IMG/VR virus record: IMGVR_UViG_2874920711_000008
Direction: 5' to 3' (one strand)
DNA from: a virus
Lineage: Duplodnaviria > Heunggongvirae > Uroviricota > Caudoviricetes
DNA: 19,828 bases
The notes under the pieces were generated by a model. It was not told the origin of the DNA and searched no databases. It saw nothing but the letters and a program-made list of their open reading frames with translations. The translations under genes were made by a program, and so were the position numbers. Shown here in pieces: positions 1 to 19,828 of the stretch (positions are counted from its first letter, which is position 1; the number at the start of each line of letters is the position of its first letter).

Positions 1-813
1 TTACCAGCGGCCGGATGCGCCGCCCCCGCCGCTAAATCCGCCGCCACTTGAGCCTCCACCGGAACCGCTGTTGTCTGAATGATAACTTCTACCTGATGCT
101 CTTTTCTGAAGTACACATAAACAGGTAAAGACCATAAATATGGTGAAAGTAAAAAAGAAGGAAAATACAGCAATGGAAAAAGTTTTATCAGAGAACAGGA
201 ATAAATCTAAAAGATAGATTGCTGAAATACAGACTCCACTTTTACATGCGCGACAAAAATTACTGCCTTGATGAAAAAACCAGAAAGGGAAGAACATCAC
301 TGCAAATACCCAAAAAATAGCAAAGTAATAATGATCAGTGGAAGACGTTGATTCACTTTCTGAAGGATTAGCCGGATATTGGTGTTGTGAAGTGAGTTGG
401 TTATTCAAAGCGATTATAGCTAACTCTAATCCCTGAGCTAATTTTTGTTGTTTAAATGCGGGTATCATGTTGCTACGGATGATATCTCCAGCCAGAGCAT
501 CGGTTACCTTTTCTTCCAGCCCATAACCTACCTGGATGCGGACAGTGCGATCCGACCAGGCAACAATGATCAGTATCCCATCATTACGTTTGGCATCTCC
601 TAAACGCCAATTGTCAAAAACTCTTGTAGCATATTGTTCAATTGTCTCGTCTTTGGTTGTGGGAACAATTAATACAGCAATTTGCACTTGGGTATTATTG
701 AAAATAGATTCTAACTTGTGCGTCAGTTCTTTCTTTTCTTGTGAGTTTAAGCGTAAGCGCCCCATCAGCGACGTCTTGTGAAAATTGTCCTGTCTGGCAA
801 CAATCGCGCCCAT
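1..813 (-). CDS. ygcG: TPM-domain membrane protein (YgcG-like), 5'-truncated by the IS66 element; the first ~20 codons (753-813) and the ATG at 811-813 lie inside the IS left end
   Basis: 270-aa ORF ending at the window edge (stop = 1-3). From residue ~21 it has a TPM-domain-like core ([10 protein letters not shown]...[12 protein letters not shown]...[31 protein letters not shown]), then hydrophobic segments and a Gly-rich tail ([19 protein letters not shown]). No signal peptide or domain N-cap. Family assignment is from memory. Confidence 0.6.
753..763. repeat. IS66 left terminal inverted repeat (GTAAGCGCCCC)
   Basis: Exact 11-bp inverted match to 3449-3459; similarity beyond 11 bp is weak. 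Confidence 0.8.
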
Positions 814-834
814 CTATATTGATGGACACGAACG

Positions 835-1509
835 ATGAATTCCCAGACAACAAAAGATATTCCCTGCTTCCGTTCTTATTTGCCTGATGCCCTGCGTTTA
901 AGATTTGAAGATAAACTGACCATCCGGGCCATCGCTCAGCGTCTGGGTCTCAGTCATTCCACAATACATACGCTTTTTCAGCGATTTCTTGCATCCGGTA
1001 TCGCATGGCCATTGCCCGATTCAGTTTCATTCGCTCAACTTGACGCCATCCTTTATGCCAACAGAAAGAAGGAATTAACAGAGCCTCAAATCAGAGAAGG
1101 CTCATGGCGAAAAGAACGGCGAACCAGCTATAGCCGTGAATTTAAGGTCCGTCTGGCTAAGCAGGCGTTACAGCCTGGGGCTGTTGTTGCCCGGATCGCC
1201 AGAGAACACGATATCAATGATAACCTGCTGTTTAAATGGAAAAGCCAGTACGAGGACGGCTTACTGAGCGATGATGACATACAGGAATGCATGCCTGTCC
1301 CGGTGGCACTGACTGATACGCCGGAGCCGACCAGACCAGTTACAAATCCCTTCTGGCGTAACAAGCATGATGAGCGCCCTGAGGGGGCTCCCGGAAACGT
1401 CCCACGGTGCGAGCTGCATCTTAAATCAGGTGTGGTAAAACTGTTTGACCCTCTCACTCCGGAACTGTTACGGGCGCTAATCCGCGAAATGAAAGGGGGT
1501 ATCCGATGA
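835..1509 (+). CDS. tnpA: IS66-family accessory protein TnpA (orfA); true start may lie downstream of 835
   Basis: The C-terminal ~130 aa (RRTSYSREFKVRLAKQALQPGAVVARIAREHDINDNLLFKWKSQ...) look like IS66 orfA; stop overlaps the tnpB start (ATGA at 1506-1509). The N-terminal ~90 aa is an extra predicted HTH-like segment. No clear SD before 835. Confidence 0.65.
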   Translation: MNSQTTKDIPCFRSYLPDALRLRFEDKLTIRAIAQRLGLSHSTIHTLFQRFLASGIAWPLPDSVSFAQLDAILYANRKKELTEPQIREGSWRKERRTSYSREFKVRLAKQALQPGAVVARIAREHDINDNLLFKWKSQYEDGLLSDDDIQECMPVPVALTDTPEPTRPVTNPFWRNKHDERPEGAPGNVPRCELHLKSGVVKLFDPLTPELLRALIREMKGGIR

Positions 1510-1852
1510 TAACGCTGCCGACCGGTACCAGAATCTGGATCATCGCTGGCATCACAGATATGCGTTGTGGCTTCAATGGCCTGGCTTCGAAGGTGCAGAA
1601 CACGCTGAAAGATGACCCGTTCTCCGGGCATATCTTCGTCTTCCGGGGCCGCAGTGGCAAAATGGTGAAAATACTGTGGGCCGATCGTGACGGGTTATGC
1701 CTGTTCGCCAAACGCCTGGAACGGGGCCGCTTCGTCTGGCCGGTGACCCGGAAGGGAAAGTGCACCTGACGCCAGCTCAGTTATCCATGCTACTGGAGGG
1801 GATCGCGTGGCAACATCCCAAACGGACAGAACGGCCTGGCATCCGGATATAA
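1506..1852 (+). pseudogene. tnpB: IS66 TnpB, reading frame broken near 1750-1760
   Basis: MITLPTGTRIWIIAGITDMRCGFNGLASKVQ...ILWADRDGLCLFAKRLERGRFVWP matches the IS66 TnpB pattern. The ORF stops at 1769, but the next frame continues VHLTPAQLSMLLEGIAWQHPKRTERPGIRI to a stop at 1850-1852. The break sits in CCCGGAAGGG. Confidence 0.8.
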
Positions 1853-1871
1853 CCCGTGATAAAACAAGGGA

Positions 1872-3427
1872 ATGAACAATGAACTCCCCGATGATATTGA
1901 GCTGCTTAAAGCCATGTTGCGTAAGCAACAGAGTCGGCTTCGACAGTATGCCTGTCAGGTCGCGGGCTATGAGCAGGAAATTGAACGGCTGAAAGCGCAA
2001 CTCGACAGGTTGCGTCGTATGTTGTTCGGCCAGAGTTCAGAGAAAAAGCGTCATAAGCTTGAAAATCAGATCCGACAGGCAGAAAAACGACTGTCGGAAC
2101 TGGAAAACCGGCTGAACACAGCCAGAAATCTTCTGGAAGATGCATCGTCAGTCACAGATTCACCTGACACCAGTCCCCGTCAGAAAACCCGATCGCCAGT
2201 AAGCCTGAATCCCCGGGAGACACATCGCCTTCTGCCTGCTGAAACCAGTTGCCCGGCCTGTGGAGGTGTTCTGAAAGAAATGGGGGAAACAATCTCAGAG
2301 CAACTGGATATCATTAATACCGCCTTTAAAGTTATCGAAACCATACGTCCCAAACTGGCCTGTAGCCGGTGTGATGTCATCGTTCAGGCACCACTTCCCC
2401 CTAAACCGATCGAACGCGGTTATGCCAGTGCAGGGTTACTTGCACGGATCCTGGTCAGCAAATATATGGAACATATCCCTTTATATCGCCAGTCAGAAAT
2501 ATACGCGCGACAGGGCGTGGAGCTGAGCCGTAATACCATGGTGCGCTGGGTATCAGAAATGGCAGACAAACTCCGTCCTCTGTATATAGCGCTGAATGAC
2601 TATGTTCTGGAGGCAGGAAAGGTGCACGCAGATGACACTCCGGTGAAAGTACTGGCCCGGGGAACGGAAAGACGAAAACGGGTCGTCTGTGGGTATACGT
2701 CAGGGATGATCGTAATGCGGGTTCATCCCTGCCGGCAGCCGTCTGGTTCGCGTATTCGGCAGATCGCAAAGGAGAACATCCGCAGCTCCACCTGGCAAAG
2801 TATCAGGGCGTACTGCAGGCTGATGCCTATGCAGGTTATAACGTACTGTACGAAACGGGCCGGGTGAAGGAAGCCGGGTGCCTGGCCCACGCCCGCCGAA
2901 AAATCCATGACGAGGATGTGCGCCGTCCGACAGAAATGACTCAGGAAGCGCTCAGACGGATAGCAGAGTTATACGACATAGAAGCGGAGATACGTGGCAG
3001 TCCGGCAGAGGAACGGCTTGCAGTCAGAAAAGCCAGAAGCGTCCAGTTGATGCAGTCGTTGTACGACTGGATACAGTTGCAGAGGAAAACGCTGTCGAAA
3101 CATGCGGAGATGGCGAAGGCGTTCGACTATATCCTGAATCACTGGAATGCGCTGAACGAGTTCTGTCGTGACGGCTGGGTGGAAATAGACAACAACATCG
3201 GTGAAAACGCGTTACGATCGGTGGCGGTTGGAAGAAAAAATTATCTCTTTTTCGGCTCAGACAAGGGAGGAGAAAGTGCGGCGATCATCTACAGTCTGCT
3301 GGTCACCTGCAAACAGAACGAAGTGGAGCCGGAGGACTGGTTGCGCGAAGTGATCGAGAAGCTCAATGACTGGCCGTCGAACCAAGTGCATGAACTGCTG
3401 CCCTGGAACTTCTCGTCTGTAAAATAA
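1872..3427 (+). pseudogene. tnpC: IS66-family transposase TnpC, one frame break near 2655-2660
   Basis: The N-terminal ORF (1872-2867) is recognisable up to ...[11 protein letters not shown]; the C-terminal part continues in another frame as [62 protein letters not shown]... and joins ORF 2864-3427. The break is in a GCCCGGGG run. Combined length is ~518 aa. Confidence 0.85.
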
Positions 3428-3448
3428 TCCTTACGCTACGTACTTCTC

Positions 3449-3459
3449 GGGGCGCTTAC
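3449..3459. repeat. IS66 right terminal inverted repeat (GGGGCGCTTAC)
   Basis: Exact reverse complement of 753-763. Confidence 0.8.
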
Positions 3460-3460
3460 T

Positions 3461-3766: not shown

Positions 3767-4203
3767 TGGGATACATCACGCAGGAAGACCTGTTACGCGC
3801 GGACGGCAATCTTGTCTGGAACATGGCGATTAACCGGGAAACCAACGGGCTGGATGAAGACAAAATCCGTCAGGCCATCAGTGATGCGGAAGCGGAAATT
3901 GATTCGTTTCTGTCCCGCCGCTACCAGCTGCCGCTGGGGGTGACGGAAATCCCGCGCCCGCTGCAACGCGTGGCGGTATCGCTGGCGTTTTACTGGTTAT
4001 CAGAGCGTGACAATCAAATCACGGAGCTGATCCAGAAACGCTACGACGACGCCATTAAAACCCTGCGTGAAATGGCGAACGGCACCCGTGACCTGGGCCT
4101 GCCGACGTATGCCACCCCGGCAGAAACCGACAACGGGAAAATTATTGTGGTGGGTGCCAATGCCCGGCTGTTCACCCGTAACAACCTGAAAGGGGTGCTG
4201 TGA
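3766..4203 (+). CDS. Mu gp36-like phage protein (DUF1320 family)
   Basis: 145-aa ORF, ATG overlapping the upstream stop (TGATG), just upstream of the tail genes. Family assignment is from memory. Confidence 0.55.
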   Translation: MGYITQEDLLRADGNLVWNMAINRETNGLDEDKIRQAISDAEAEIDSFLSRRYQLPLGVTEIPRPLQRVAVSLAFYWLSERDNQITELIQKRYDDAIKTLREMANGTRDLGLPTYATPAETDNGKIIVVGANARLFTRNNLKGVL

Positions 4204-4745
4204 TGGGGATTTCTGTACAGGTCAGCGGTGACCAGCGTCTGGAGGATATCCGCCGCGCCGTTGAAAAGCTGGCAGAGGGTTCATTGCAGTCAGAGCTGCT
4301 GGAAAGCATCGGTGCGGTGGTGGAATCACAGACCCGCCGCCGCATCATCGATGAGAAAACCAGTCCGGGTGGCGAACGCTGGCCGGACTGGTCTGACGGG
4401 TACAAAAAGACCCGCCACGGCAACCAGAGTCTGCTGCGCGGTGAAGGCCATCTGCTGGAGAGTATCCAGTACATCGTGGAAAACCGCGTGGTGCGTATCG
4501 GTTCACCGCTGGATTATGCCCGCATCATGAATGACGGCTTTTCCGGCAGCGTGCCGGTCAGCGCCCACAAACGGCTTATCTCGCAGTGTTTCGGGCGGGC
4601 GCTGAAATATCCGGTCTGGCAGACCGTCGGCGCACATCACCGCATGATGAACATTCCGCAACGTGAATTTCTGGGGCTGTCTTCTGCCAGCCAGCAGGAG
4701 CTGCAACAGGTTATCAGTCATTTCTGGAAGGAGGTTCTGCCATGA
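4203..4745 (+). CDS. Phage virion morphogenesis / tail completion protein (Mu G / P2 gpS-like family)
   Basis: ~180 aa with ...RRRIIDEKTSPGGERWPDWSDGYKKTRHGNQSLLRGEGHLLESIQY...REFLGLSSASQQEL, typical of this family. ATG at 4203 overlaps the upstream stop; stop overlaps the next start (ATGA at 4742-4745). Confidence 0.6.
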   Translation: MGISVQVSGDQRLEDIRRAVEKLAEGSLQSELLESIGAVVESQTRRRIIDEKTSPGGERWPDWSDGYKKTRHGNQSLLRGEGHLLESIQYIVENRVVRIGSPLDYARIMNDGFSGSVPVSAHKRLISQCFGRALKYPVWQTVGAHHRMMNIPQREFLGLSSASQQELQQVISHFWKEVLP

Positions 4746-7855: not shown

Positions 7856-9682
7856 CCGTCTCAGCACGGAAATCATGATCAACCTTGCCGGGAACCTGAC
7901 CGCCAAAGCCCGGCAGTACGGTGCAAACATGTCGCAGTTCGCCCGGAACAACCAGAAGGCCATGCGCCTGGTCAAAGCCACAACGGAGGCTGCCGGGCGC
8001 AGTCTGGATGCGCTTGGCAACCGCTACACGGCGATGATTGCCGGGTTCGGTGGTGGTATGACCCTTAAAGGCCTGACAGATTTTGATGCGCAAATCCGCC
8101 GTGCGGGTACAAATGCAAAACTGACCGATGAGCAGGTATCCCGTTTAAGAAAAAACATCCGGGAAACCGCCAGAATGTCAGACATTCGCCTCAGTGCCCA
8201 GGTCTTACTGGAAGGCCAGGATGCACTGTATGGCCTGACCGGTAAGCCGGAATTTGTTGAAAAAAACATCCGCAATCAGGGCTGGCCACGCAGGCATTCG
8301 GGACTGCGCCACAGGATGCCGCGGCACTGATGGCACAGATGTCCGAAAAACAGATTGAAGCGCCTCAGGAGGTTGAAGGCATGTTCGACCGCTTCTACCA
8401 CCAGTTTTCCATTGGTTCGGTTGGTGTGGATCAACTGGCGCGTGTATCAGCAAAACTGTTTTCGATTTATACCGGTGGTGGCAAAGAGGCGATAGCCCAG
8501 TTGGGGCACTTGAACAGATGCTGGCAAAAACAACCGGCTCTGCGGATGAAGCGGTGACCGCGCTGAACAGTATCTGGAGTGAAGTCACCCGAAAAGACAA
8601 TATCAAGTTTCTGAAAAGAAACGGGGTTGATGTGCTTGATCCTGTCACAGGAAAACCCCGTCTGCCTTATGACGTAATCAGAGACGTTGTCAGGCGGGCA
8701 AAATTTAATGAGCAGAACTTGCAGGATGTTTTCGGGGATACTTCCATGCGTGGATTAAGGGCACTGCTCAGTGAAGACGCCCTTCAGCTAACAGAAAAAA
8801 TGATTTACGCCCCGGTTGAATCCGGTGCCATGAGAAAAGCTGCGGAGAAAAACGCCCGGAGTTTTCAGTCTGCGATGCAGTCCCTGAAGAATGAATATGA
8901 GGTTTTTGCTGAAAAAAATCTGGCAAAACCCGTTCAGGACCTGGCGGATGCCATCAACAGCGTGGACCAGAACTGGTTGCAGGTCGGTAAATATATGGCA
9001 ATTGCGCTGGGTGGCATTATCGCCGTACGTAAGACGTACAAGCTCGGTAAAACCATCCACGACATCATGAATCCCAAAGGGAAAGGCAAAGGGATACCCG
9101 GCGGTATTACGGATGTTTTCGGCTCCGGCGTGATGCCGGTGTATGTGGTCAATATGGGCAGTGGCGGGATGAACGGCAATGTCGGTGGTCTGCCGGATGC
9201 GCCGGATTCATCACGCAATCCCGTAACCCACGCAATCCACGAGGTCCGGGTAACCGCGGAGGTAATGCGGGCAAAGGCGCTGGCATCATCGCCGGTGCCC
9301 TGGAATTTTACGATTTTCTGACCACGCAATACGCCCTGCCGGGTGAGATTGACAGTCTTACAAAATCCGTGGCCGGTGATGCCAGCGCCAGCCCGTGGGA
9401 GCGCGAGTTCGCGCAACAAAGCCAGGATAACCAGAAAGCGCTCGAGTCCGTCTGGCGTAAGGTAACGGACTGGTTTAATTCGCTGGGTGACAAGAACATT
9501 GCCGACCCGCGACCGTGGGCAGGTATGCAACCCACACAGAATTATCCTTTCCTTCCGCAACAATTGCAGGGGAAATCCGTGTGGTGGTGGAAGGTGATGC
9601 CCGCGTGAAAAGCGTCAGAGTGGATCAACCCGGCGTCAGACTCAGTGCGCAGGCTGGCGTCACCAGCGTGGAGCAGGGTTAA
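7842..9682 (+). pseudogene. Tail tape measure protein (Mu gp42-like), split into at least 4 ORFs
   Basis: Co-linear ORFs 7842-8330, 8330-8557, 8518-9321 and 9369-9608 in frames 0, 2, 1, 0, plus a final stretch ...VVVEGDARVKSVRVDQPGVRLSAQAGVTSVEQG ending at 9680-9682 (TAATG overlap with the next gene). Total ~613 aa. The adjacent frame reads cleanly across the first break (...GLATQAFGTAPQDAAALMAQMSEKQ...). Confidence 0.75.
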
Positions 9683-10953
9683 TGACAACGAGCAACGGTA
9701 AATGGGACGGGCTGCGCGACGCCTCGTTTCGTGGCGTCCCCTTCTTTCTGGTGGATACGGAGGGCACCGGTGGTCGTCGTGCCATTCCCCGTGCTTATCC
9801 CCGGCGTGAAACCGCCTGGACGGATGATAACGGGGCCGTTCCGGGGCAACAGCAGATTAACGCAAAGCTGCCAGGTAAAAACTTCCGGGATGATTTAAAC
9901 GCCCTTTTAGATGCGCTCAATACCCCGGCCCGGCGAGCTTGTCCACCCGTGGTTCGGGATACAGACCGTACAGGTTGGCAAGGTCACCCATCGCCTCTGC
10001 ACGGAGGAAGACGGCATTGCGTATGTCACCTTTGAAGTGTTTGAGGCAGGCGAGCGCCTGTTCCCGTCTGCGGCGGATAACACGCAGCAGGAAGTGCTGA
10101 CAGGCATTGATGCGGTGAAAGCCGCCATTGACGATGGCGACTGGTTCGGCGCACTCGACGGGCTGGGTGACATGGCCGACAGTTTTCTGGCCGATATGGA
10201 AAACCTTGTGGCTAACCTGCCCACGTTACCGGCAGCACTGAATCAGTGGATGGACAGGCTGAAGCATTTTAAGGCGATGGCCGGAACCCTCATTGCCACA
10301 CCGGGGCGTCTGGTCAGTGAGCTGTCAGCACGGGTGGAAGATATTGCGGGCCTTGTGACGGAACCACCCGAAGCACTGGCGGTTTACACGACATTACGCA
10401 ACCAGTGGGCCGGAGAACGTGCCAGGCAGATTGCCACCGGCGCACTGCCGGAAGATATCACCGTGAAGCCCGGCAGCGTGGCAGACGGCAACCCGGCTTT
10501 GCCATCGGGCTGTCACCGGATTATCAGCCGGTATCTGACAGCCTGCAAAAGAACATTGACGACTTCCGCCAAGTGGTTGTGCTGGGAGCCCTGCTGGGAC
10601 AGGCCAGTGCCGTGGCCTCGATGACGTTCGATACCCGTGATGCGGCGTTATCTGCCGGTGACACGCTGGCGGCTGAACTGCATGAGCAGGCGGTGGCGGC
10701 GGTGGAAAACAACCAGCGGACATTGTGGCGAACGCTGCGCGATTTACGGCAGGCCGTGATTACGGATGCCCGCGAGCGTGCCGCCCGTCTGCCGGAAACC
10801 CGGCAGGTGACGCTGACCACAACCACCTCTGCCGCATTGCTGGCATGGCGCGAGCATGGTGACACACGCCGACGGGATGAAATCGTGCAGCGTAACCGCC
10901 TGCGTCATCCGTCATTCATCCTACCGACGCAACCTGTGGAGATCACCGACTGA
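9682..10953 (+). pseudogene. N: DNA circularisation protein (Mu N-like), frame breaks near 9925 and 10490
   Basis: The N-terminus MTTSNGKWDGLRDASFRGVPFFLVDTEGTGGRRAIPRAYPRRE matches the DNA-circulation N-terminal family, and ...PGELVHPWFG... continues in the next frame. Three ORFs (9682-10035, 9911-10624, 10405-10953) join through breaks in CCCCGGCCCGG and AACCCGGCTTT. Confidence 0.75.
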
Positions 10954-12018
10954 TGGAATCCGTGATTCTTACCGTTGACGGCAAACTGTGGGAAGGCTGG
11001 ACGGAAATGTCCGTCAGCCGTTCCCTGAAGGCGATTGCCGGTGAGTTTGAACTCAGTGTGACAACCCGCTGGTCAGCGGCGGCACCGCGCGTGATTCGTG
11101 AGGGGCAACCCTGCACGGTCAGGCTGGGCGCAGATACCGTGCTGACGGGGTATATCGATGATTTTATTCCCGGCTATGAGGCTGAAAACGTGGAGATTCG
11201 CGTCATGGGGCGCGATAAAACCGGCGACCTGGTGGACTGCTCTGTGGTGCATTCGTCCGGGAAATGGAAAGGCGTGCGGCTTGAACAGGTGGCGGCTGAT
11301 GTCTGCCGCCCGTTCGGGATAACCGTCATCACGGAAACCCCGACCGGGGAGGCATTTGCGTCTGTCGTTCTGGAACAGGGTGAAACGGGCTTTGAACTGC
11401 TCGACCGGCTGGCAAAACAGCGCGGCGTTCTGCTGACGTCTGACGGCGCGGGTAACCTGATTATCACCCGCGCCTCTTCCGTTCGCGCGGGCGTGTCACT
11501 GGTGCTGGGAAAAATATCCTCGCCGCCCGTGGGCGCTTCAGCTGGCGGGAGCGTAACAGCCAGTACATCATCAAGGGCACCACCAGTGCCCGTGGCAAAC
11601 TGTGGGACAGCCAGCCTGCCCGATGGTGGGCGGTCGCCAGTACATCACCGAAGCCCCGGAAATTAACCGTTACCGCCCGCGCATTCTGGTCAATGAAGAC
11701 AGCCTGACCGTGGGCGGGCCAGCATTCGCGGGAATGGTACAAAGCCCGGATGCTGGGAGAGTCCCGCACGACGGAAATCACGGTGGCAGGCTGGCGCGAA
11801 CAGGGCGACAGCGGCCCGCTGTGGCAGACCAACCGCCTTGTCGATATCGACGACAGCATTCAGAACCTGAAAACCACCTGGCTGATATCCGGGGTGACAT
11901 GGACGGATGGCGCACAGGGAGGATGACGGTTCTGGCGCTGGTTCCGCCTGAATCACTGGACATGCCGGAAATGAAAGCGAAGACGAAAAAAACAAAGGCG
12001 GTGGCCACATGGGATTAA
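10953..12018 (+). pseudogene. P: Tail/baseplate protein (Mu P-like, gp44), several frame breaks between ~11500 and ~11930
   Basis: A 237-aa N-terminal ORF, then plausible protein sequence alternating between frames (ENILAARGRFSWRERNSQYIIKGTTSARGKLWDSQ; RQYITEAPEINRYRPRILVNEDSLTVGG; EWYKARMLGESRTTEITVAGWREQGDSGPLWQTNRLVDIDDSIQNLKTTWLISGVTWTDGAQGG; MTVLALVPPESLDMPEMKAKTKK). Stop at 12016-12018. Confidence 0.6.
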
Positions 12019-12544
12019 ACGCAATTGCCCGCCGCCTGCGACTGATGGTTGACCGCGCTGTTGTCCGCCTGGTGTCTGACGGTCTGGCACGGCAGAACCT
12101 GCAAATTCAGACGCTGGCAGATGCCACCGATGACGACGTGGAACGCTTCCAGAACTACGGGTTTACGTCCGTTCCGCCGGAAGGTTCTGAAGCCATTGTG
12201 ATGGCCGTTGGCGGACGGCGTGACGGGCTGGTTGCCATCGCGGTGGAAGACAAGCGATGTCGCCCGAAAGGACTGTCCCCGGCGATGTCAGGGTGTATCA
12301 CCGGGACGGCAAATCACACATCACCCTGAAGGAAAACGGCGTCATTGAAATCACAGGAGAACAATTAGACTTTTCAGGGAAAACGGTAAATCTCACTGCC
12401 GACGAACTGCTGAATATTATCGGTAAACAAATGAAATTCGTCGGTCCCTGTGAATTCACTGAAGATGTCAGAATCAAGGGTAAATCATTCAGCGAACACA
12501 TTCATAAGGACGGCGACAATGAGAATACATCACCGCCCGTATGA
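12009..12544 (+). pseudogene. Baseplate assembly/spike protein (Mu gp45-like), one frame break near 12250-12300
   Basis: ORFs 12009-12329 and 12257-12544 are co-linear and read as one protein (MGLNAIARRLRLMVDRAVVRLVSDG...PGDVRVYHRDGKSHITLKENGVIEITGEQLDFSGKTVNL...). Confidence 0.7.
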
Positions 12545-12991
12545 CGACAGAAATCCGCTGGAATAACATGCTCTCACGGGGTGACATCACCGTCACCCAT
12601 AACGGCCTCTCACGGGATGAGGGCTGGTCACTCAGGTTCTTATCTGCCTTTTCACCGATGCCCGCGCTGATGACGATGATGTCATTCCTGACGGCTCCGG
12701 CGACCCGCGCGGCTGGCCGGGCGACACGTACAGCGATTTTTCGTGGGTTCCCGCCTGTGGCTGCTTGAGCGTGAAAAGCTGACGGAAGATGTCCGCCTGC
12801 GCGTGGAAGATTACGCGCGGCTGTCCATGCAGCCGCTTCTGCGTGCCGGTTACGCCCGTAACGCCACCGTCACGGCCAGCATCATCATTCCTGACCGTAT
12901 TGCCTTTCTGGTGGTGTTAACCCGCCCGGACAAAACCACACTCAGAATCGAAATCACCCGTCGATGGGAGGCCACCATTAATGCCGTATGA
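12541..12991 (+). pseudogene. Baseplate protein (Mu gp46-like, GP46 family), two frame breaks
   Basis: N-terminus MTTEIRWNNMLSRGDITVTHNGLSRDEG, a middle piece in another frame (...DDDVIPDGSGDPRGWPGDTYSDFSW), and a C-terminus in the third frame (GSRLWLLEREKLTEDVRLRVEDYARLSMQPLLRAGYARNATV...). Confidence 0.65.
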
Positions 12992-13953
12992 AATCCCCAC
13001 GCTGGGCAAACTGATTGCCGACGGCGAAAAAGATATTGCGTATGAACTCGGCCTGCAAAAGCTGCCGCCTGTCAGTGTTGAGCAGGCGCTGAACGTGTCA
13101 TTCAGCAGTCAGGTCCGGGATTTATACGACCATCAGAGCTGGATTAAGGACCAGATAATCCCGTCCACCACGTCTGATGATGAAACCATTATCAAAACAG
13201 CAAAGTATGAAGGCGTTATCCGCAAGCAGGCCACCTTTGCCAGCGGGCGGGTGACCTTCACCAGTCAGTCCCCCTTCCGGCAGAAACCCGGATGCAGTCC
13301 GACACGAACCAGGTGTATCAGGTACTCACGTCCGGCGAGGTGCAGGACGGCGAGGTCACCGTCATCGTGCAGGCTGAAGAAGCCGGTGTGGAGGGCAATC
13401 TTGCTGCCGGTGCCGTACTCACCCTGCTGTCCCCGCTGCCCGGAACGGCCAGCACAGGCGCGGTGGCTGAAGGTGGCATCACCGGTGGCGCAGACACTGA
13501 ATCCATCGCAGCGCTGCTGGACCGTCTGCTGTATGTGCGCCGCAATCCACCGACAGGCGGCGCGTTGCATGACTACGTGATATGGGCGCGTGAAGTGCCG
13601 GGCGTCAGCCGCGCGTGGGCGTGGGATGCATGGCACGGCCCGGCACGGTCGGGCTGGCATGGCTTTATGATGACCGGGAAAACATCGTGCCAACCCGCGA
13701 AGACCTGAAGACAATGGAGCAGTATCTGTTCTGCCACAAACACCCGGCCACGGGCGTGATGGTGGGTAAACCGGGCGGCATTGAGGTCTGGCCGGTACAG
13801 GTCAGGCTGAAGAAAGTCAGCATATCCATCCGTCTGACACCGGACAGCCTGGCGAACAGGAGCGCCGTCCGGGCAAACCTGACCGCGTTACAGAAGACAC
13901 TGGCACCCGGTCAGACGCTGCCGGGCGGTTTACCTGTATTGATGGCGTCATGA
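12981..13953 (+). pseudogene. Baseplate J-like protein (Mu gp47-like), split into three ORFs
   Basis: ORFs 12981-13580, 13292-13708 and 13615-13953 are co-linear in frames 0, 2, 1; the real-looking parts (MPYEIPTLGKLIADGEKDIAYELGL...; ...EVQDGEVTVIVQAEEAGVEGNLAAGAVLTLLSPLPGTA...; ...LKTMEQYLFCHKHPATGVMVGKPGGIEVWPVQ...) follow one another. Confidence 0.7.
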
Positions 13954-14051
13954 CACCATTAATCAGCGAACGCACCCGTGAGCTGGAATGCCTGCTGAAG
14001 CATTACCGGCTGGCGGGCACGGAATATGAATATTATTACACCGGAGAATAA
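13950..14051 (+). CDS. Short ORF (33 aa, MTPLISERTRELECLLKHYRLAGTEYEYYYTGE) between the baseplate J gene and the fibre gene
   Basis: ATG overlaps the gp47 stop (ATGA); its own stop lies 3 bp before the fibre ATG. It sits where a Mu gp48-type gene would be but is far too short. Coding status is uncertain. Confidence 0.25.
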   Translation: MTPLISERTRELECLLKHYRLAGTEYEYYYTGE

Positions 14052-14162
14052 TTTATGTTTTATGTGGATAACCCGACGGGTGTGCCGGTAATGCCACCTG
14101 TCGCGGCTGAATTAAGCAAAACAACGCTTTATTTCACCGAAGGCGGGAACGGTATTCCGCCC

Positions 14163-14172
14163 ACGTATCCGG
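14163..14172. repeat. Left copy of the 10-bp direct repeat CGTATCCGGG (target-site duplication of the IS4-family element)
   Basis: Identical 10-mer lies immediately outside both CTGA...TCAG termini (14163-14172 and 15472-15481). Confidence 0.7.
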
Positions 14173-15471
14173 GCTGAGGGATCCCCACAAAATTACTGCT
14201 AATAAACCAGCACCATATTTCGGTAGGTTCTGGACAGATGGTTTAGAACTGTGCTCAGTACTGTTCGTCTTAAAATAAGTGGCGAGTGTCGAAGAACATT
14301 CTTCGCTAACGTCAGATATGAGATAACCCGCCGGGATTTAATGCTGTTAGCCTGATATTTCAGGTGTAACCCTTTATTTTCAGCGTGATAACCGAGTAAC
14401 CACATTACGATAGTGCTCAACGTTGCCAGCAGACTCAGAACCAGAATTCTTCCTGTTGAACGACTTTTGCTGGCCCGAAGACCAAATCCGAAGCGCCCGT
14501 TCTTTTCATCACGAAAGTTTTGCTCTATCTGCATTCGCCGACTGTATAACTTGATGATTTCTCGCGCTCTGAAGTCATTTGTACTGCTGAAGATCAACCA
14601 GGCTTCTTTTGCTGATTTGCTCTGTTCTTTGTCTGTTTTGTTTAAACCACTCTGACCTTTCGAACGTTTCTTTTTTCGCCCTTTTGCCGATTTCTTATAG
14701 GTGTAAAAATGCCCCCGGATGCTTTTTTTCCTTTCTTTAACCAGCCTTCCAGCCCCATATATTCCGGTGTTTTACATTCAGGGCTATCCGACACTTTTAA
14801 CCATCTTTCAGGCGCGTTATCGAGGCAATACTGAACGTTATTTCTGATCCGACCAATAAAATCCCAGCCCAGAGAAGTAATATGGTGAAACCATGCGCTC
14901 TGAAATCCAGCATCCGTGACAATAATAACCCTGGCATCGGGGGCAGGGATTGAGCAAGGGAATCAAGGAAATCATGTTGTATCAATGGATTATTTTGTTT
15001 TTCAGAAGGAACAACCTTACTCAATAACGGAATGGAACGCCCGTCACACAGAAGGCTGGCACGAAGAACATGATGCTCCTGGAGGGATAGCCACTCCAGT
15101 CTACGGCTATTACACATAAAGATAACTGCCGTGTCAGCATTGAAGTGATATTCCTGAAAATCATTGGAATATCGCGATGGAGCGCCTCATTACCCATGAG
15201 GCGATCAATACGTTTGCTCTTATTCTTAACTTGTGCATTACCCGGGAAAAAACGTCCGATACTGGTCAGCGTCAGAGATGCTCCGTTGATTAACGCCACT
15301 GTGGCATCCATCAGGGCATTTTGTCGGTACTGATGAAATGGTGCTAAGGCATCCCGGAAGAAATTCTGACATACTTTATGAACAGGCATAGCAGTGATCT
15401 CATTGAATTGTTGGCACAAATCAGTAGATCACATAATGCTATGTCTGTCTCGTTTTCTGGGGATTCCTCAG
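14173..15471 (-). mobile_element. IS4-family (IS10-like) insertion sequence, 1299 bp, inserted in the tail fibre gene
   Basis: Termini CTGAGGGATCCCC (14173-14185) and GGGGATTCCTCAG (15459-15471) are inverted repeats with one mismatch and resemble the IS10 outside end (CTGAGAGATCCCC). Flanked by the 10-bp direct repeat. Contains a minus-strand IS10-like transposase. Confidence 0.8.
14199..15389 (-). pseudogene. IS4-family (IS10-like) transposase, in at least 4 frame segments
   Basis: Minus-strand segments align in order to IS10 transposase: N-terminal (...TLTSIGRFFPGNAQVKNKSKRIDRLMGNEALH...VDWS), middle (...HVLRASLLCDGRSIPLL...VIIVTDAGFQSAWFHHITSLGWDFIGRIRNNVQY...) and C-terminal (...IFSSTNDFRAREIIKLYSRRMQIEQNFRDEKNGRFGFGLRASKSRS...). 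One break sits at a T7 run (14723-14729). Confidence 0.8.
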
Positions 15472-15481
15472 CGTATCCGGG
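15472..15481. repeat. Right copy of the 10-bp direct repeat CGTATCCGGG
   Basis: See 14163-14172. Confidence 0.7.
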
Positions 15482-16372
15482 GCCGGACTGGTTTAATATT
15501 ATTCAGTCTGAATTACTGGAAATACTCCGGCAGGCAAATATCAAACCGGATAAAAACACAACCGACCAGATTATGACAGCGCTGAAAAAACTGTTTATTA
15601 CGAACAGTGGTTCAGCCGGAGCTATTGCCGGATTAACCGGTCAGAATAATACATTCCCTTATTTTACCGGCAAAGACACAATGGCATTAACACCGCTCAG
15701 TGCGTTTGTGCGCAGTATTCTCGGGAAAAACAGCGCCAGTGAATTTATTAAAGCAATCGGCCTGTCACCAGACATCCTTTTATCAAAAGGACCGGTGACA
15801 GCATTAAGCAGTACAGCACAGGGCAATGCAGGACTTCAGATGTATGAAGTGTACAACAACGGCTATCCCACAGCTTATGGCAATGTTCTGCATCTGAAAG
15901 GCGCGGCAGCATCTGGCGAAGGCGAACTGCTGATTGGCTGGAGTGGCACGAGCGGTGCACATGCTCCGGTTTATATTCGCTCAAGGCGTGATACCACCGA
16001 TGCAGTCTGGTCTGAATGGGCGCAGGTGTTTACATCAAAAGACAGCTTCAACGCAGCATCCGCCACAAAACTACAGACCCCACGCAAAATTAACGGTACG
16101 GCATTTGATGGCACCAGAGATATCACCATCAGCAGCACCGATTCTGGTGCAGTACGTGATTTCAGATACACCAGCGAAGTGTTTCACAATCCCGGTGGTA
16201 ACGAAATTTCCTGGGTATTCCGCGCGCCTTCAGGGTGTATTTTGTCAGGTATTAACGTTCAGGAAACTGGCAAAAGCTCTGCGGATAACATCGGGGGTGT
16301 GTATTACAAACAAACTCAGATTTATATCAATGGCGGATGGCGCACGGTATCCGGCTAATTAAGGAGAAAATA

Positions 16373-16903
16373 ATGGAACTCAGAAACGTCACGCGTTATT
16401 ACCCGGAAGAAATGCCTTATGGTGAAAACATTCAGTATTTCCGCAGTGAAGACGGACAGGATTTTTATGAATCACTGGATAAATTCACGAAGAAATACAA
16501 ATTATGTATTCACCCGGAAACCGGCGTGATTTATTCAATGGCAGAAGACGTGTCTCGTCTTTATCCTGTTGGTTTTACCATTGTGGAAGTGGATGAGCTG
16601 CCGGAGGGTTTTGACATCGAAGCCAACTGGTATTACCGGGATGGCGAAGTACTGCCAGTTCCTGTTGATTATTCGAAACTGGCAGAAAAGCAACGTCAGC
16701 GCTTGCTGAATGAAGCAAAGGAAATCACTTCCGACTGGAAAACCAAGCTGGAGCTGGGCACCATCAGCGACGATGACAAAGTCCGTCTTACGCAGTGGAT
16801 GGAATATATCAAAGCGGTGAAGGTGCTGGATTTAAGCACTGCTACCGATGAAATCTCCTTTGATGCCATCAACTGGCCGGAGCGTCCCGATGCCGCAGCT
16901 TAA
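16373..16903 (+). CDS. Tail fibre assembly chaperone (Tfa; Mu U / P2 G-like)
   Basis: AAGGAG SD 7 bp upstream of the ATG at 16373; ~176 aa; directly downstream of the fibre gene; Tfa-like features (...PEGFDIEANWYYRDGEVLPVP..., C-terminal ...DEISFDAINWPERP). Confidence 0.75.
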   Translation: MELRNVTRYYPEEMPYGENIQYFRSEDGQDFYESLDKFTKKYKLCIHPETGVIYSMAEDVSRLYPVGFTIVEVDELPEGFDIEANWYYRDGEVLPVPVDYSKLAEKQRQRLLNEAKEITSDWKTKLELGTISDDDKVRLTQWMEYIKAVKVLDLSTATDEISFDAINWPERPDAAA

Positions 16904-18296
16904 AGGTGTGATTAAAACGCCCACGGGAGAACCGCTGGGCGGCGCAACCATTACACTGACCTCCCTGCACAACCGTGCAGGGATTCTGAAAGGCGTTTTC
17001 AGCCACGTCACCACACAGAGCGGGGAGTATGACTTCCCCGTTCTGCCGGGCGTGTACAGCGTTCGCCTGACACAGAGCGCACAACGCCTTTCAGAAATCG
17101 GTGTCATTCGCGTTTATGAAGATTCAGCGGACGGTTCGCTGAATGATTTTCTGGGCGCAACTGATATTGACCTGCGTCCGGAATCCCTGAAGAAATTCGA
17201 AGAGCTGGCGCAACAGGCGCAGCAGAGTGCCGGGGCCGCAGCCGGAAACGCACAGCAGACGGCGCAGGATGTGGCGGCAGCCGCAACGGCCCGTGATGAT
17301 GCACAACGTTTTGCGGAGAAAGCCCGACAGGATGCAACCGTCACAGCTGAGGACAGAAAGGCCACTGCGGAAGATGTGACAAGCACAGGAGCAAATGCAG
17401 CCGCAGCCGGACAGAGCGCACAGGATGCCGCAGGTTATGCCCGCGCAGCAGAACAGGCCAAAAATGACATTGATGCTGCGCTGACCGGCACTCTGAAAAT
17501 GGCTAACCATCTGTCAGAAATCGCAGCAGCAGGCGAAAAGGCACAACAGAAGTCCCGGGATAATCTGGGGCTGAAAAGTGCGGCCACGATGGAAGCACAG
17601 AGCGACATTTACGACCGGACAAAAGGCCGTCTGGCGATACCCGGCGCATTCGGCTTTGGGTGTGCTTTTCTGCCTGAAGATGTTATCCGTTTTGACACTA
17701 AGAGTGATTTCCTGGCCTGGGTAAGGAATGCGCTGCCAGGTGAGTATTCCGTTGCTGGCCCCTACGGCATCATCATACCCGACACACGGTTTGAAGGGGG
17801 GCTCAGCATCCGGTGGACTGATGCACGCCCTGAGACAACAGAACCGAGGTACAGAGCCAAATCCCTTACTTTTTACGGCATTAACGGCCCCATTTATCAC
17901 ACCCGCTACTGCTACTGGCCCATATCCAGACTGACTGGCTGGGTGAAAATAAATATAACCACAGAAGATATTATTTACAGAATCGTGGCGAGCTCTGTCC
18001 GCAACAGATGGGGAGACCCTGACATTGGCGGGCTGATTATTGCTGCGTACCAGGGAAAAGCTGACGGTGATAAAGACATCAGACTTGTCAGGGGGCGGTC
18101 ATACAGAGGCTCACGACTGGGACCGGTGGGGATTTCAGCGCCCTGTACTCCCACCGGAACGCATATAGTATACCCACAATATTTCATTACGGGATGTTCA
18201 GAGCATTCATTACCGGGGTCATATTGCGCCCTGTCCGGGGTGCCGGATACATATGTCTCTGGCGCAATGCTTGGGCTTTTTATTCGCACATCGTGA
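16890..18296 (+). CDS. Second tail fibre protein with a lambdoid Stf-type N-terminal domain
   Basis: Intact 469-aa ORF from the ATG at 16890 (GGAG SD upstream; overlaps the tfa 3' end). N-terminus MPQLKGVIKTPTGEPLGGATITLTSLHNRAGILKGVF...VYSVRLTQSAQ...IRVYEDSADGSLNDFLGA resembles prophage side-tail-fibre N-termini, followed by an Ala/Gln-rich stretch. Confidence 0.7.
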   Translation: MPQLKGVIKTPTGEPLGGATITLTSLHNRAGILKGVFSHVTTQSGEYDFPVLPGVYSVRLTQSAQRLSEIGVIRVYEDSADGSLNDFLGATDIDLRPESLKKFEELAQQAQQSAGAAAGNAQQTAQDVAAAATARDDAQRFAEKARQDATVTAEDRKATAEDVTSTGANAAAAGQSAQDAAGYARAAEQAKNDIDAALTGTLKMANHLSEIAAAGEKAQQKSRDNLGLKSAATMEAQSDIYDRTKGRLAIPGAFGFGCAFLPEDVIRFDTKSDFLAWVRNALPGEYSVAGPYGIIIPDTRFEGGLSIRWTDARPETTEPRYRAKSLTFYGINGPIYHTRYCYWPISRLTGWVKINITTEDIIYRIVASSVRNRWGDPDIGGLIIAAYQGKADGDKDIRLVRGRSYRGSRLGPVGISAPCTPTGTHIVYPQYFITGCSEHSLPGSYCALSGVPDTYVSGAMLGLFIRTS

Positions 18297-18306
18297 GGAA
18301 TGCACT

Positions 18307-18872
18307 GTGGAAATTAAAAAAATCATTAATCCCCGTTATACCGAAAGTGGCGCAGTAGACTGTGACGTTTTTTTGACGACAGGGACCAGGCAGTCCCCTA
18401 CACAGCCACCGCTGATGATGTCGCTCCGACGGGTCAGCAAATCTGGCAGGAACTGCAAAGCGGCAAATGGGGTGAGATAGCCCCATTCACTGTGACACCA
18501 GAAATGCTGGAAGCGGCCAGAGAGGCCAGACGTCAGGAAATTGAAGCATGGCGCACAGAACAGGAGGCGAAGCCGTTCACGTTTGAATGGAACGGTCGTA
18601 TCTGGGATGCTGGCCCCGACTCACTGGGCCGCCTGTCCCCGGTGGTCATGCTGGCAAAATCTGTCGCGGCACAAACAAATATGACGTGGAGTGATGCGGA
18701 TAATCAGCAGGTGCAGCTGACGACGCAGGAACTTGAGGAACTGGCCACAGCGATGATACAGGCCATTGTTGAGCGCAACGATGAGATTTATCGCTGTCAG
18801 CGGGAGATGAAAGAACAACTTTCTCTGTTGCCCACACTGGACGAGGTGAGAGCGTTCAGACCAGGCGATTAA
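18307..18872 (+). pseudogene. Tail fibre assembly protein with DUF4376-like C-terminus, frame break at a T7 run (18368-18374)
   Basis: GTG at 18307 after a GAGGA SD reads VEIKKIINPRYTESGAVDCDVF; after the T7 run the next frame continues FDDRDQAVPYTATADDVAPTGQQIWQELQSGKWGEIAPFTVTPEMLEAAREARRQEIEAWRTEQEAKPFTFEWNGRIWDAGPDS... to a stop at 18872. One extra T restores a single ~188-aa ORF. Confidence 0.6.
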
Positions 18873-18894
18873 ATAATCAGTTTGTATAGTTTAT

Positions 18895-18996
18895 GACGAT
18901 CGATAGAATCATATCGATCGTCGGTTTGCATCAAGTGTGATTAAATACCCCCAGCCCTCCGGGCAGCGATATCCTGTTATTACACTGGGGGAAATT
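18895..18996 (+). promoter_or_regulatory. Putative mom-operon regulatory region: GATC-containing palindrome (18904-18931) plus a C/G-rich segment upstream of com
   Basis: Perfect 11-bp inverted repeat GACGATCGATA/TATCGATCGTC around a 6-nt spacer holds two GATC sites (18907-18910, 18925-18928); then CCCCCAGCCCTCCGGGCAGCGATATCCTGTTATTACACTGGGGG up to the com SD. Mu mom control is known to use Dam-methylated GATC sites and C-protein binding; assignment here is by position and analogy. Confidence 0.4.
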
Positions 18997-19182
18997 ATGG
19001 ACTCTGTTCGTTGTAAAAATTGCAATAAATTGCTGTTTAAAGGAGGTTTTAAGCATATAGAAATCAAATGTCCTCGCTGTAAACGTTACATTGTCATATC
19101 GAGTGCCCGGGAGCATCCCACGGAGCTGTATTGTGGGAAAAGAGAAGAAATCACGCATTCTGACAAAACCCTGCGTTATTGA
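18997..19182 (+). CDS. com: Com, zinc-finger translational activator of mom
   Basis: 61-aa [64 protein letters not shown] with a CxxC...CxxC...C arrangement, recognisably Mu Com; GGGG SD upstream; 3' end overlaps the mom 5' end. Confidence 0.85.
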
Positions 19183-19828
19183 GTATGAAGGCCGGATTGT
19201 CGGCTATGGTTCAAGGGAGCTGCGCGTTGAAACCATATCCTGCTGGCTGGCCCGCACAATCATTCAGACAAAGCATTATTCCCGCCGTTTTGTGAATAAC
19301 TCCTGGTTGCATCTGGGCGTATTCAGTGGACGTGATCTGGTTGGTGTTCTTCAGTGGGGATATGCCCTTAACCCCAACTCAGGGCGTCGCGTTGTGCTTG
19401 AAACGGATAACCGGGGCTATATGGAACTGAACCGCATGTGGCTACACGACGACATGCCCCGCAACTCTGAATCACGGGCCATCAGCTACGCGCTGAAAAC
19501 CATCAGGTTACTGTATCCGTCAGTGGAGTGGGTTCAGTCCTTTGCAGACGAACGTTGCGGGCGTGCAGGTGTTGTGTATCAGGCGTCAAATTTTGATTTT
19601 ATTGGCAGCCATGAAAGCACATTCTACGAACTGGACGGTGAGTGGTATCACGAGATAACGATGAATGCGATTAATCGTGGAGGGAAGCGCGGCGAATATT
19701 TACGAGCGAATAAGGAGCGGGCCGTGGCGCACAAATTTAATCAATATCGTTACATCAGGTTCCTGAACAAGCGCGCAAAAAAGCGACTAAACACTAAGCT
19801 ATTCAGGATTCAGCCTTACCCGAAGTGA
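19133..19828 (+). CDS. mom: Mom, DNA adenine modification (anti-restriction) protein; start uncertain (open frame from 19091, GTG at 19133 gives 231 aa)
   Basis: ...[99 protein letters not shown]... is recognisably Mu Mom; overlaps com as in Mu. The stop TGA is the last 3 bases of the window. Confidence 0.85.

Follow-up and report, generated by a model that had tools for sequence, protein, structure and literature searches.

The stretch analyzed here (19,828 nucleotides, hereafter the window) is a Caudoviricetes sequence recorded in IMG/VR as IMGVR_UViG_2874920711_000008, and its positions 14055-18872 hold two tail fiber genes, each followed by the gene of a chaperone-type protein. We consider it quite probable that the late (tail) operon of a decayed Mu-like prophage ends in this interval, with two co-directional receptor-binding modules whose fibers would be displayed together in intact relatives. 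The order is a Mu S-type fiber (fiber 1), a Mu U-type assembly protein, a fiber with a PF08400 domain (fiber 2) and a DUF4376 protein, followed by com and mom, all on the plus strand. The original prediction, made from the letters alone, had described two same-strand fiber and chaperone pairs without an invertase, and open reading frames (ORFs), protein families and strand are as it described them. It had further taken the two cassettes for a complete, mosaic host-range module, which they are not. The genes concerned are as follows.

14055..14173, plus strand: 5' fragment of the Mu S-type baseplate fiber gene (fiber 1), codons 1-39, beginning MFYVDNPTGVPVMPPV...
15472..16358, plus strand: 3' part of the fiber 1 gene, in frame with the 5' fragment after removal of an insertion sequence and one duplicate copy
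16373..16903, plus strand: Mu U / lambda Tfa-type tail fiber assembly protein belonging to cassette 1 (PF02413 Caudo_TAP, 1.2e-22)
16890..18296, plus strand: fiber 2, 468 amino acids, with a PF08400 collar domain (phage_tail_N, 1.8e-28), a long helix and a globular C-terminal domain
18253..18872, plus strand: DUF4376 protein, putative chaperone of fiber 2, with an apparent frameshift at 18367 and an uncertain start codon
18937..19182, plus strand: com (PF10122 Zn_ribbon_Com)
19091..19828, plus strand: mom (PF25680 Mom, 1.3e-75)

Two co-directional fiber cassettes

When the insertion sequence ISSfl1 and one copy of its target-site duplication are removed, fiber 1 is restored as an in-frame protein of 331 amino acids. 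Residues 1-81 of this reconstruction match the Mu tail fiber S (PDB 5yvq/9ki1, E 4.6e-21), as had been predicted. Fiber 1 is 38% identical to Mu S by BLASTP and belongs over its full length to PHROG 1833, "tail fiber protein" (8.8e-116); its C-terminal residues 243-331 resemble a "short tail fiber" (PDB 9cuy, 1.2e-14), and a Pfam search of fiber 1 gave no match. The predicted Tfa behind it is confirmed by the PF02413 match and by full-length similarity to Mu U (26% identity, E 3e-21), with membership in PHROG 136 (3.3e-57); the ATG of its gene is preceded by an AGGAG ribosome-binding site. Among relatives, the C-terminus of fiber 1 and the assembly protein are swapped as one unit. Window 15729-16864 has no blastn match in the complete Mu-like prophage of E. 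coli FDAARGOS_943 (L001 below), yet is 99% identical to the IMG/VR relative L032, in which the fiber 1 allele is intact (99.3%). In Mu, the N-terminus of the fiber gp49 is anchored on the fiber-docking loop of the wedge protein gp48 (PMC11915804). Since fiber 1 has a Mu gp49-type N-terminus, in intact relatives it should dock on the baseplate as in Mu, at the gp48-type wedge.

The gene of fiber 2 begins 14 nucleotides inside the 3' end of the assembly protein gene. Its product scores 99.7 bits against PF08400 (Pfam gathering cut-off 26.6), which upholds the predicted N-terminus of the lambdoid Stf type, and it belongs to PHROG 2636 (8.2e-198); all four fiber-module proteins are members of existing PHROG tail-fiber families. 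The phmmer matches of fiber 2 in the PDB are the collar spike gp40 of phage XM1 (7kjk, E 5.8e-10, residues 3-187) and the Stf N-domain of Ur-lambda (9e7m, E 1.3e-9). In an AlphaFold2 monomer model, residues 1-75 form a beta-sandwich, residues 98-225 a helix with a predicted local distance difference test (pLDDT) score below 50, and residues 260-468 a globular domain with pLDDT 80-90 in parts. The modeled N-domain matched the XM1 and Ur-lambda structures in Foldseek (E 1.8e-6 and 3.4e-6) and superposed on Ur-lambda StfN with a template modeling score of 0.85 and a root mean square deviation of 2.0 Å over 93 columns. The structural comparison thus recovers the StfN fold at the N-terminus, and Foldseek gave no confident PDB match for the C-terminal domain. 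Resemblances of that domain to phage K gp144, phi812 and the R2 pyocin fiber reached probabilities of at most 0.5, and no receptor is inferred from them.

Behind fiber 2, the predicted DUF4376-type protein is likewise present: the PF14301 match (18492-18872, 3.8e-18) covers its C-terminal part. Its homologs are intact in L001 (208 amino acids), in phage phiP27 (188) and in Actinobacillus phage vB_Apl-pPE4 (187), as well as in the assembly L010 described below, and the translation of the window gene after frameshift repair is 96.6% identical to that of L001. DUF4376 proteins act as fiber chaperones in Alteromonas phages (PMC7289586, PMC10579305), and the one shown to be needed for folding of the upstream fiber is gp27 of Alteromonas phage V22 (PMC7289586). 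By analogy, the DUF4376 protein of the window is a putative chaperone of fiber 2.

As had been predicted, the locus differs from the invertible G segment of Mu. Within 13500-19828, the longest inverted repeats are 14-18 nucleotides (83-100% complementarity) and scattered, and none flank a cassette. The gix core AAACCNNGGTTT, with two or fewer mismatches allowed, occurs 5 times against 8.9 expected from shuffles, i.e., below chance. Mu Gin searched by tblastn (E <= 1) against the window and 89 loci found no match except Mu itself, the positive control. The module genes are tightly packed or overlapping, with only 64 nucleotides from the DUF4376 stop to the com start; no promoter-like plus-strand site lies between module genes, and terminator-like matches are within chance. 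Given this close arrangement and the lack of such signals, the sensible reading of the sequence is that intact relatives would express both fibers simultaneously and not alternately. The four genes would then be transcribed together, both fibers would be carried on every virion, and a fixed dual specificity would stand in place of the phase-variable one of Mu. A cryptic switch other than Gin, by recombination between the cassettes or by slipped-strand phase variation, might alternate the fibers instead, and the T8 run at 18360-18367 does vary in length between assemblies. Such a switch is scarcely credible: a repeat search found no repeats in common between the two cassettes, and the same assembly has 19 further one-base homopolymer deletions, spread over unrelated genes and mostly in G or C runs of 3-6, which is a signature of sequencing error.

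The generality of the arrangement was surveyed in 5426 complete E. coli genomes and in an IMG/VR scan seeded with an alignment of the fiber 2 N-domain, which yielded 80 loci classified by phmmer. In 194 of the E. coli genomes some part of the region has a match, and the relatives inspected have, in this order, YmfQ, a tail protein, an assembly protein, a PF08400 fiber, DUF4376 or another distal module, com and mom. Among the 80 IMG/VR loci, 55 have baseplate J, YmfQ, a fiber with the Mu S N-terminus, Tfa and a PF08400 fiber in this order, most followed by DUF4376; com-mom follows the second cassette in 21, and tblastn found a Gin homolog in none. It weighs against the breadth of these figures that the IMG/VR scan used peptide patterns from three relatives, toward which the proportions are biased. 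A scan of GTDB genomes with the N-domain alignment gave 5 loci only, because the peptide patterns derived from that alignment were narrow. Homologs of baseplate J and YmfQ are also followed by the same four families, identically ordered, in phiP27 (L54-L57) and vB_Apl-pPE4 (gp67-70), such that the four-gene order is common to phages of Enterobacteriaceae and Pasteurellaceae at 34-38% identity. Among temperate myoviruses that have a Mu-type tail this layout is both ancestral and widespread, and annotations of it already exist for related phages. As judged from these gene orders, the two-fiber arrangement is the standard of the lineage, and the mosaic of the original prediction is no local one.

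Structural lesions and probable sequencing errors in the window

The lesions of the window are listed below with their coordinates.

835..3459, plus strand: IS66-family element (Pfam HTH_Tnp_1, zf-IS66, DDE_Tnp_IS66, IS66_C)
13919..13924, no strand: junction of a 567-bp deletion with microhomology TGCCGG, located by blastn of the window against L001
14164..14173, no strand: left copy of the target-site duplication CGTATCCGG(G), 9-10 bp, read from the sequence
14174..15471, minus strand: ISSfl1 (IS4 family, IS10-like), 1298 bp, with a DDE transposase gene; splits fiber 1 after codon 39
15472..15481, no strand: right copy of the target-site duplication CGTATCCGG(G), read from the sequence

The original prediction had passed over ISSfl1 and regarded the first cassette as complete. 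The 40-codon ORF listed at 14055-14177 (MFYVDNPTGVPVMPPV...TYPG) continues into the element and stops at 14177, and no long ORF starts from 14055; the 3' part of fiber 1 is covered by a listed plus-strand ORF at 15378-16358. The ends of the element are IS10-like, with CTGAGGGATCCCC at 14174 and CTGAGGAATCCCC, on the other strand, ending at 15471. Over 100% of its length it shares 99.6% identity with a copy in FDAARGOS_943 annotated as "IS4-like element ISSfl1 family transposase". Three one-base homopolymer deletions divide the transposase gene of the window into four minus-strand ORF pieces (14199-15419), and the colinear assembly L010 has it as an intact ORF of 410 amino acids. L032 carries the single-copy empty site CCCACGTATCCGGGGCCGGAC without ISSfl1. 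With ISSfl1 in the fiber 1 gene, the first cassette is therefore incomplete, and a transposase gene lies within 14055-18872, contrary to the predicted lack of a recombinase gene.

The remaining structural lesions lie outside the fiber genes. The 567-bp deletion has cut off the baseplate J/gp47 gene at its 3' end along with some three quarters of YmfQ/gp48, and joins the former gene to the last 133 nucleotides of the latter; the gene mostly deleted is thus that of the docking partner of fiber 1. The IS66-family element stands in place of the head, packaging, lysis and early regions, and terminase and transposition genes are also absent. To its left is a host TPM-domain gene (1-813, minus strand), and prophage sequence resumes at 3460 within a gp35-like gene, where the blastn alignment to a complete relative (L006) starts. 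The IS66 transposase itself lies in two ORFs, 1872-2867 and 2864-3427.

In addition to these lesions, many reading frames of the window are broken by single missing bases, including those of tape-measure, baseplate, transposase and DUF4376 genes. An independent assembly, L010, is colinear with the window from 7909 to 19828 (99.74%). The ISSfl1 insertion and the 567-bp deletion recur in L010, but it lacks all 20 one-base indels, which fall within window 8278-18367 (e.g., 9568, 11715, 13269, 14752, 18367) and are all deletions in homopolymer runs of the window; the DUF4376 frameshift at 18367 is a change from T8 to T7 in the run 18360-18367. Consistently, the 15 one-base indels relative to L001 are all bases missing from homopolymer runs of the window. 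We considered the small frameshifts as real pseudogenization and rejected this, given that all are one-base homopolymer deletions and that the ORFs are intact in L010. Because L010 shares the insertion and the deletion and none of the small frameshifts, the former are taken as real and the latter as artifacts: the structural lesions (ISSfl1, the 567-bp deletion and the IS66 truncation) are real, and the twenty small frameshifts, that of DUF4376 included, are probably sequencing errors from systematic homopolymer undercalling in the assembly. The proteins most similar to fiber 2 are those of Shigella sonnei and S. dysenteriae (95-98% identity); taken with the presence of ISSfl1, they make it probable that the host is Shigella or a close E. 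coli.

Whether the frameshifts are real or not, the window is a tail-only remnant of a Mu-like prophage and cannot make particles. With fiber 1 split, gp48/YmfQ mostly deleted, and head, packaging, lysis and early genes gone, the module here displays nothing. It is accordingly very improbable that the interval is, as first proposed, an intact mosaic host-range module of a phage that shows two fibers at once. Gene order, common strand and lack of an invertase all fit that proposal, but the lesions contradict it. The genes for head, terminase, lysis and transposition are missing, the arrangement is the usual one in the lineage, and L010, assembled independently, has the same insertion and deletion. 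Simultaneous display of two fibers is still the best reading for intact relatives, and is impossible in the remnant of the window. As a dead prophage remnant with a layout known from phiP27 and many E. coli genomes, the window itself matters little. Its analysis has corrected the description on an overlooked insertion sequence, on frameshifts that are mostly sequencing errors, and on a "mosaic" that is the standard of the lineage.

Function and proposed position of the second fiber

We compared the window with the diverged relative L026 (synonymous divergence, dS, 0.87). At this distance the nonsynonymous to synonymous rate ratio (omega) of fiber 2 is 0.32 overall, which points to purifying selection across the family; taken separately, the N-domain has 0.19, the helical segment 0.14 and the C-terminal domain 0.35. 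A point that weighs against this is that on the short branch of the window itself, in a comparison with fiber 2 of L001 (7772-9178), the C-terminal domain has 14 nonsynonymous and 3 synonymous differences, an omega of approximately 1.5 from small counts. This excess is compatible with relaxed constraint after inactivation, and it may be due to relaxed constraint in a dead prophage or to diversifying selection.

Relatives keep the N-domain of fiber 2 and exchange the distal part. Variants behind the constant domain include a 535-amino-acid fiber with DUF4376, a 605-amino-acid fiber without a chaperone, and a 301-amino-acid PF08400 adaptor with a small ORF and an SGNH/GDSL hydrolase downstream. 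In intact relatives, such exchange of the variable C-terminal parts by recombination would change host range. The last variant is seen in E. coli STEC719 (NZ_CP041411; L007, 4490-7216), where the position of cassette 2 is taken by the 301-amino-acid PF08400 protein, a 100-amino-acid ORF and a 456-amino-acid SGNH/GDSL hydrolase. Such a locus hints at a receptor-binding module with enzymatic activity, possibly O-antigen deacetylation, built on the same collar domain.

The second cassette might alternatively be a passenger from a lambdoid prophage, either dead cargo or a fiber for co-resident lambdoid phages. The family of its N-domain is familiar chiefly from the side tail fibers of lambdoid phages, most of its phage matches are lambdoid or Stx phages, and some IMG/VR loci have PF08400 fibers with no baseplate genes nearby. 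We regard a passenger as unlikely. Purifying selection acts on the fiber 2 family, and XM1 is a myovirus with the collar domain on its virion. Moreover, because the four-gene order is kept across bacterial families, the fiber 2 gene overlaps the gene upstream, and the distal part is swapped while the N-domain stays constant, as in a working receptor-binding protein, fiber 2 is better read as a working virion protein than as cargo. Separately, three IMG/VR loci (L037, 6262-10973; L047, 5637-11331; L082, 5130-10991) have two tandem PF08400-type fibers and no upstream baseplate J/YmfQ genes; lambdoid-type phages may thus stack two collar-domain fibers.

As a working virion protein, fiber 2 could be imagined to compete with fiber 1 for the same six baseplate sites, which would give mixed or stochastic particles. 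Shigella phage Sf14 does carry two fiber types on a Mu-like baseplate (PMC11821841), and both fiber genes of the module directly follow the wedge genes. However, fiber 2 has no similarity to the N-terminal docking segment of Mu S, and in both solved cases the collar domain binds hexameric ring junctions and not the wedge loop; we find competition improbable. With an Stf collar domain at its N-terminus, a domain that binds tail or neck ring junctions, in place of the gp48-docking N-terminus of fiber 1, fiber 2 is probably not a second baseplate fiber. In intact relatives, fiber 1 would sit on the baseplate through its Mu gp49-type N-terminus and fiber 2 elsewhere through its collar domain.

The solved homologs offer a guide to that location. 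In XM1, six gp40 trimers are held on the neck by their N-domain, which touches the head-completion protein gp4 and the tail terminator gp5, and the N-domain is followed by a 100-residue coiled coil and a spike (PMC10457771). In Ur-lambda, twelve Stf N-domains make a collar at the gpV/gpM junction (PMC12617516). By analogy, fiber 2 of a sheathed tail would most likely be placed on the neck, where the head-completion ring meets the tail-terminator ring. Several points weigh against this placement. The neck proteins of the lineage have no sequence similarity to XM1 gp4/gp5 and match Mu gp36 (gene product J) only; the precedent is a single solved myovirus homolog, XM1 gp40; the collar domain is near the tail tip in lambda, which makes a baseplate-proximal site possible; and the literature searched contains no experiment or virion proteome that places fiber 2 on particles of Mu-type myoviruses, nor any functional study of the second fiber in these phages. 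We therefore put forward only tentatively, as possible rather than probable, that in the whole lineage (phiP27, pPE4 and the Mu-like prophages of E. coli and Shigella) the PF08400 protein is a neck fiber and not a tail-tip fiber, which would give two spatially separate sets of receptor-binding proteins.

If the neck placement is true, these phages would have Mu S-type fibers on the baseplate and swappable collar fibers at the head-tail junction. Fixed dual display would then be an evolutionary alternative to the Gin-driven switching of Mu, and the collar domain would be a portable adaptor for siphovirus tail tips and myovirus necks alike. This Mu-like lineage also has a gene for virion morphogenesis of the Phage_tail_S family (P2 gpS-like; window 4200-4745), with the gp36-like connector gene on one side and the sheath gene on the other. 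The connector complex of Mu, as seen by cryo-electron microscopy, has no components besides the gp29 portal, gp36 and gp37. An additional ring, at the neck or for tail completion, could be relevant to the binding site of a collar fiber.

Comparison with known fiber systems

A close counterpart is the complete Mu-like prophage of E. coli FDAARGOS_943 (NZ_CP065615, 338-373 kb), which is 98-99% identical to the window in tail genes, fiber 2, DUF4376, com and mom. The comparison with fiber loci of Mu-like prophages that the original prediction had called for thus gives the same order, with the four fiber-module genes intact. Unlike in the window, fiber 1 of this prophage is free of ISSfl1, YmfQ is not deleted, and the head and early regions are complete; the prophage also carries another allele of the fiber 1 C-terminus and assembly protein. 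The Stx2e phage phiP27 (NC_003356) is more distant. Its module lies on one strand directly after the baseplate J and YmfQ-type wedge genes, without an invertase, and consists of the unclassified fiber L54, L55 (PF02413), L56 (PF08400) and L57 (PF14301), with L56 aligned to fiber 2 over 99% of its length at 36% identity. It differs from the window in that phiP27 is an integrase-type phage with intact genes, its module ends at attR rather than at com-mom, and the N-domain is just 37% identical.

Outside the lineage, fiber 2 shares its homologous N-terminal beta-sandwich domain with gp40 of the Vibrio myophage XM1 (PDB 7KJK) and with Ur-lambda Stf (PDB 9E7M). In both, a long coiled-coil helix and a distal binding domain follow the N-domain, and the distal domains are unrelated to that of fiber 2. 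In XM1, the number of gp40 is remote from those of the tail genes (gp5-gp18), and its gene probably has another location in the genome. Lambda differs in being a siphovirus, with a collar that surrounds the junction of tube and tip. The chaperones of Alteromonas phages V22 (gp27) and A5 resemble the DUF4376 protein in having a C-terminal DUF4376 domain and a gene immediately after that of their fiber, with no detectable similarity beyond the domain.

The G segment of Mu (S, U, U', S', gin) has the same genome position, between wedge gene 48 and com-mom, and fiber 1 and its assembly protein are homologous to the Mu S N-terminus and to U. Where the window has its second module, Mu has U', S' and gin. 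In contrast to Mu, the window has no gin, no gix sites and no alternative on the opposite strand; its fiber 2 is read from a start codon of its own and bears an unrelated N-domain instead of sharing the constant part of S, and expression would be simultaneous rather than alternating. Either layout would give a phage two receptor specificities. A large group of Mu-type myoviruses would have, instead of the G-segment switch, a constitutive second receptor-binding protein, in which exchanged distal parts are carried by a constant collar domain of the Stf type.

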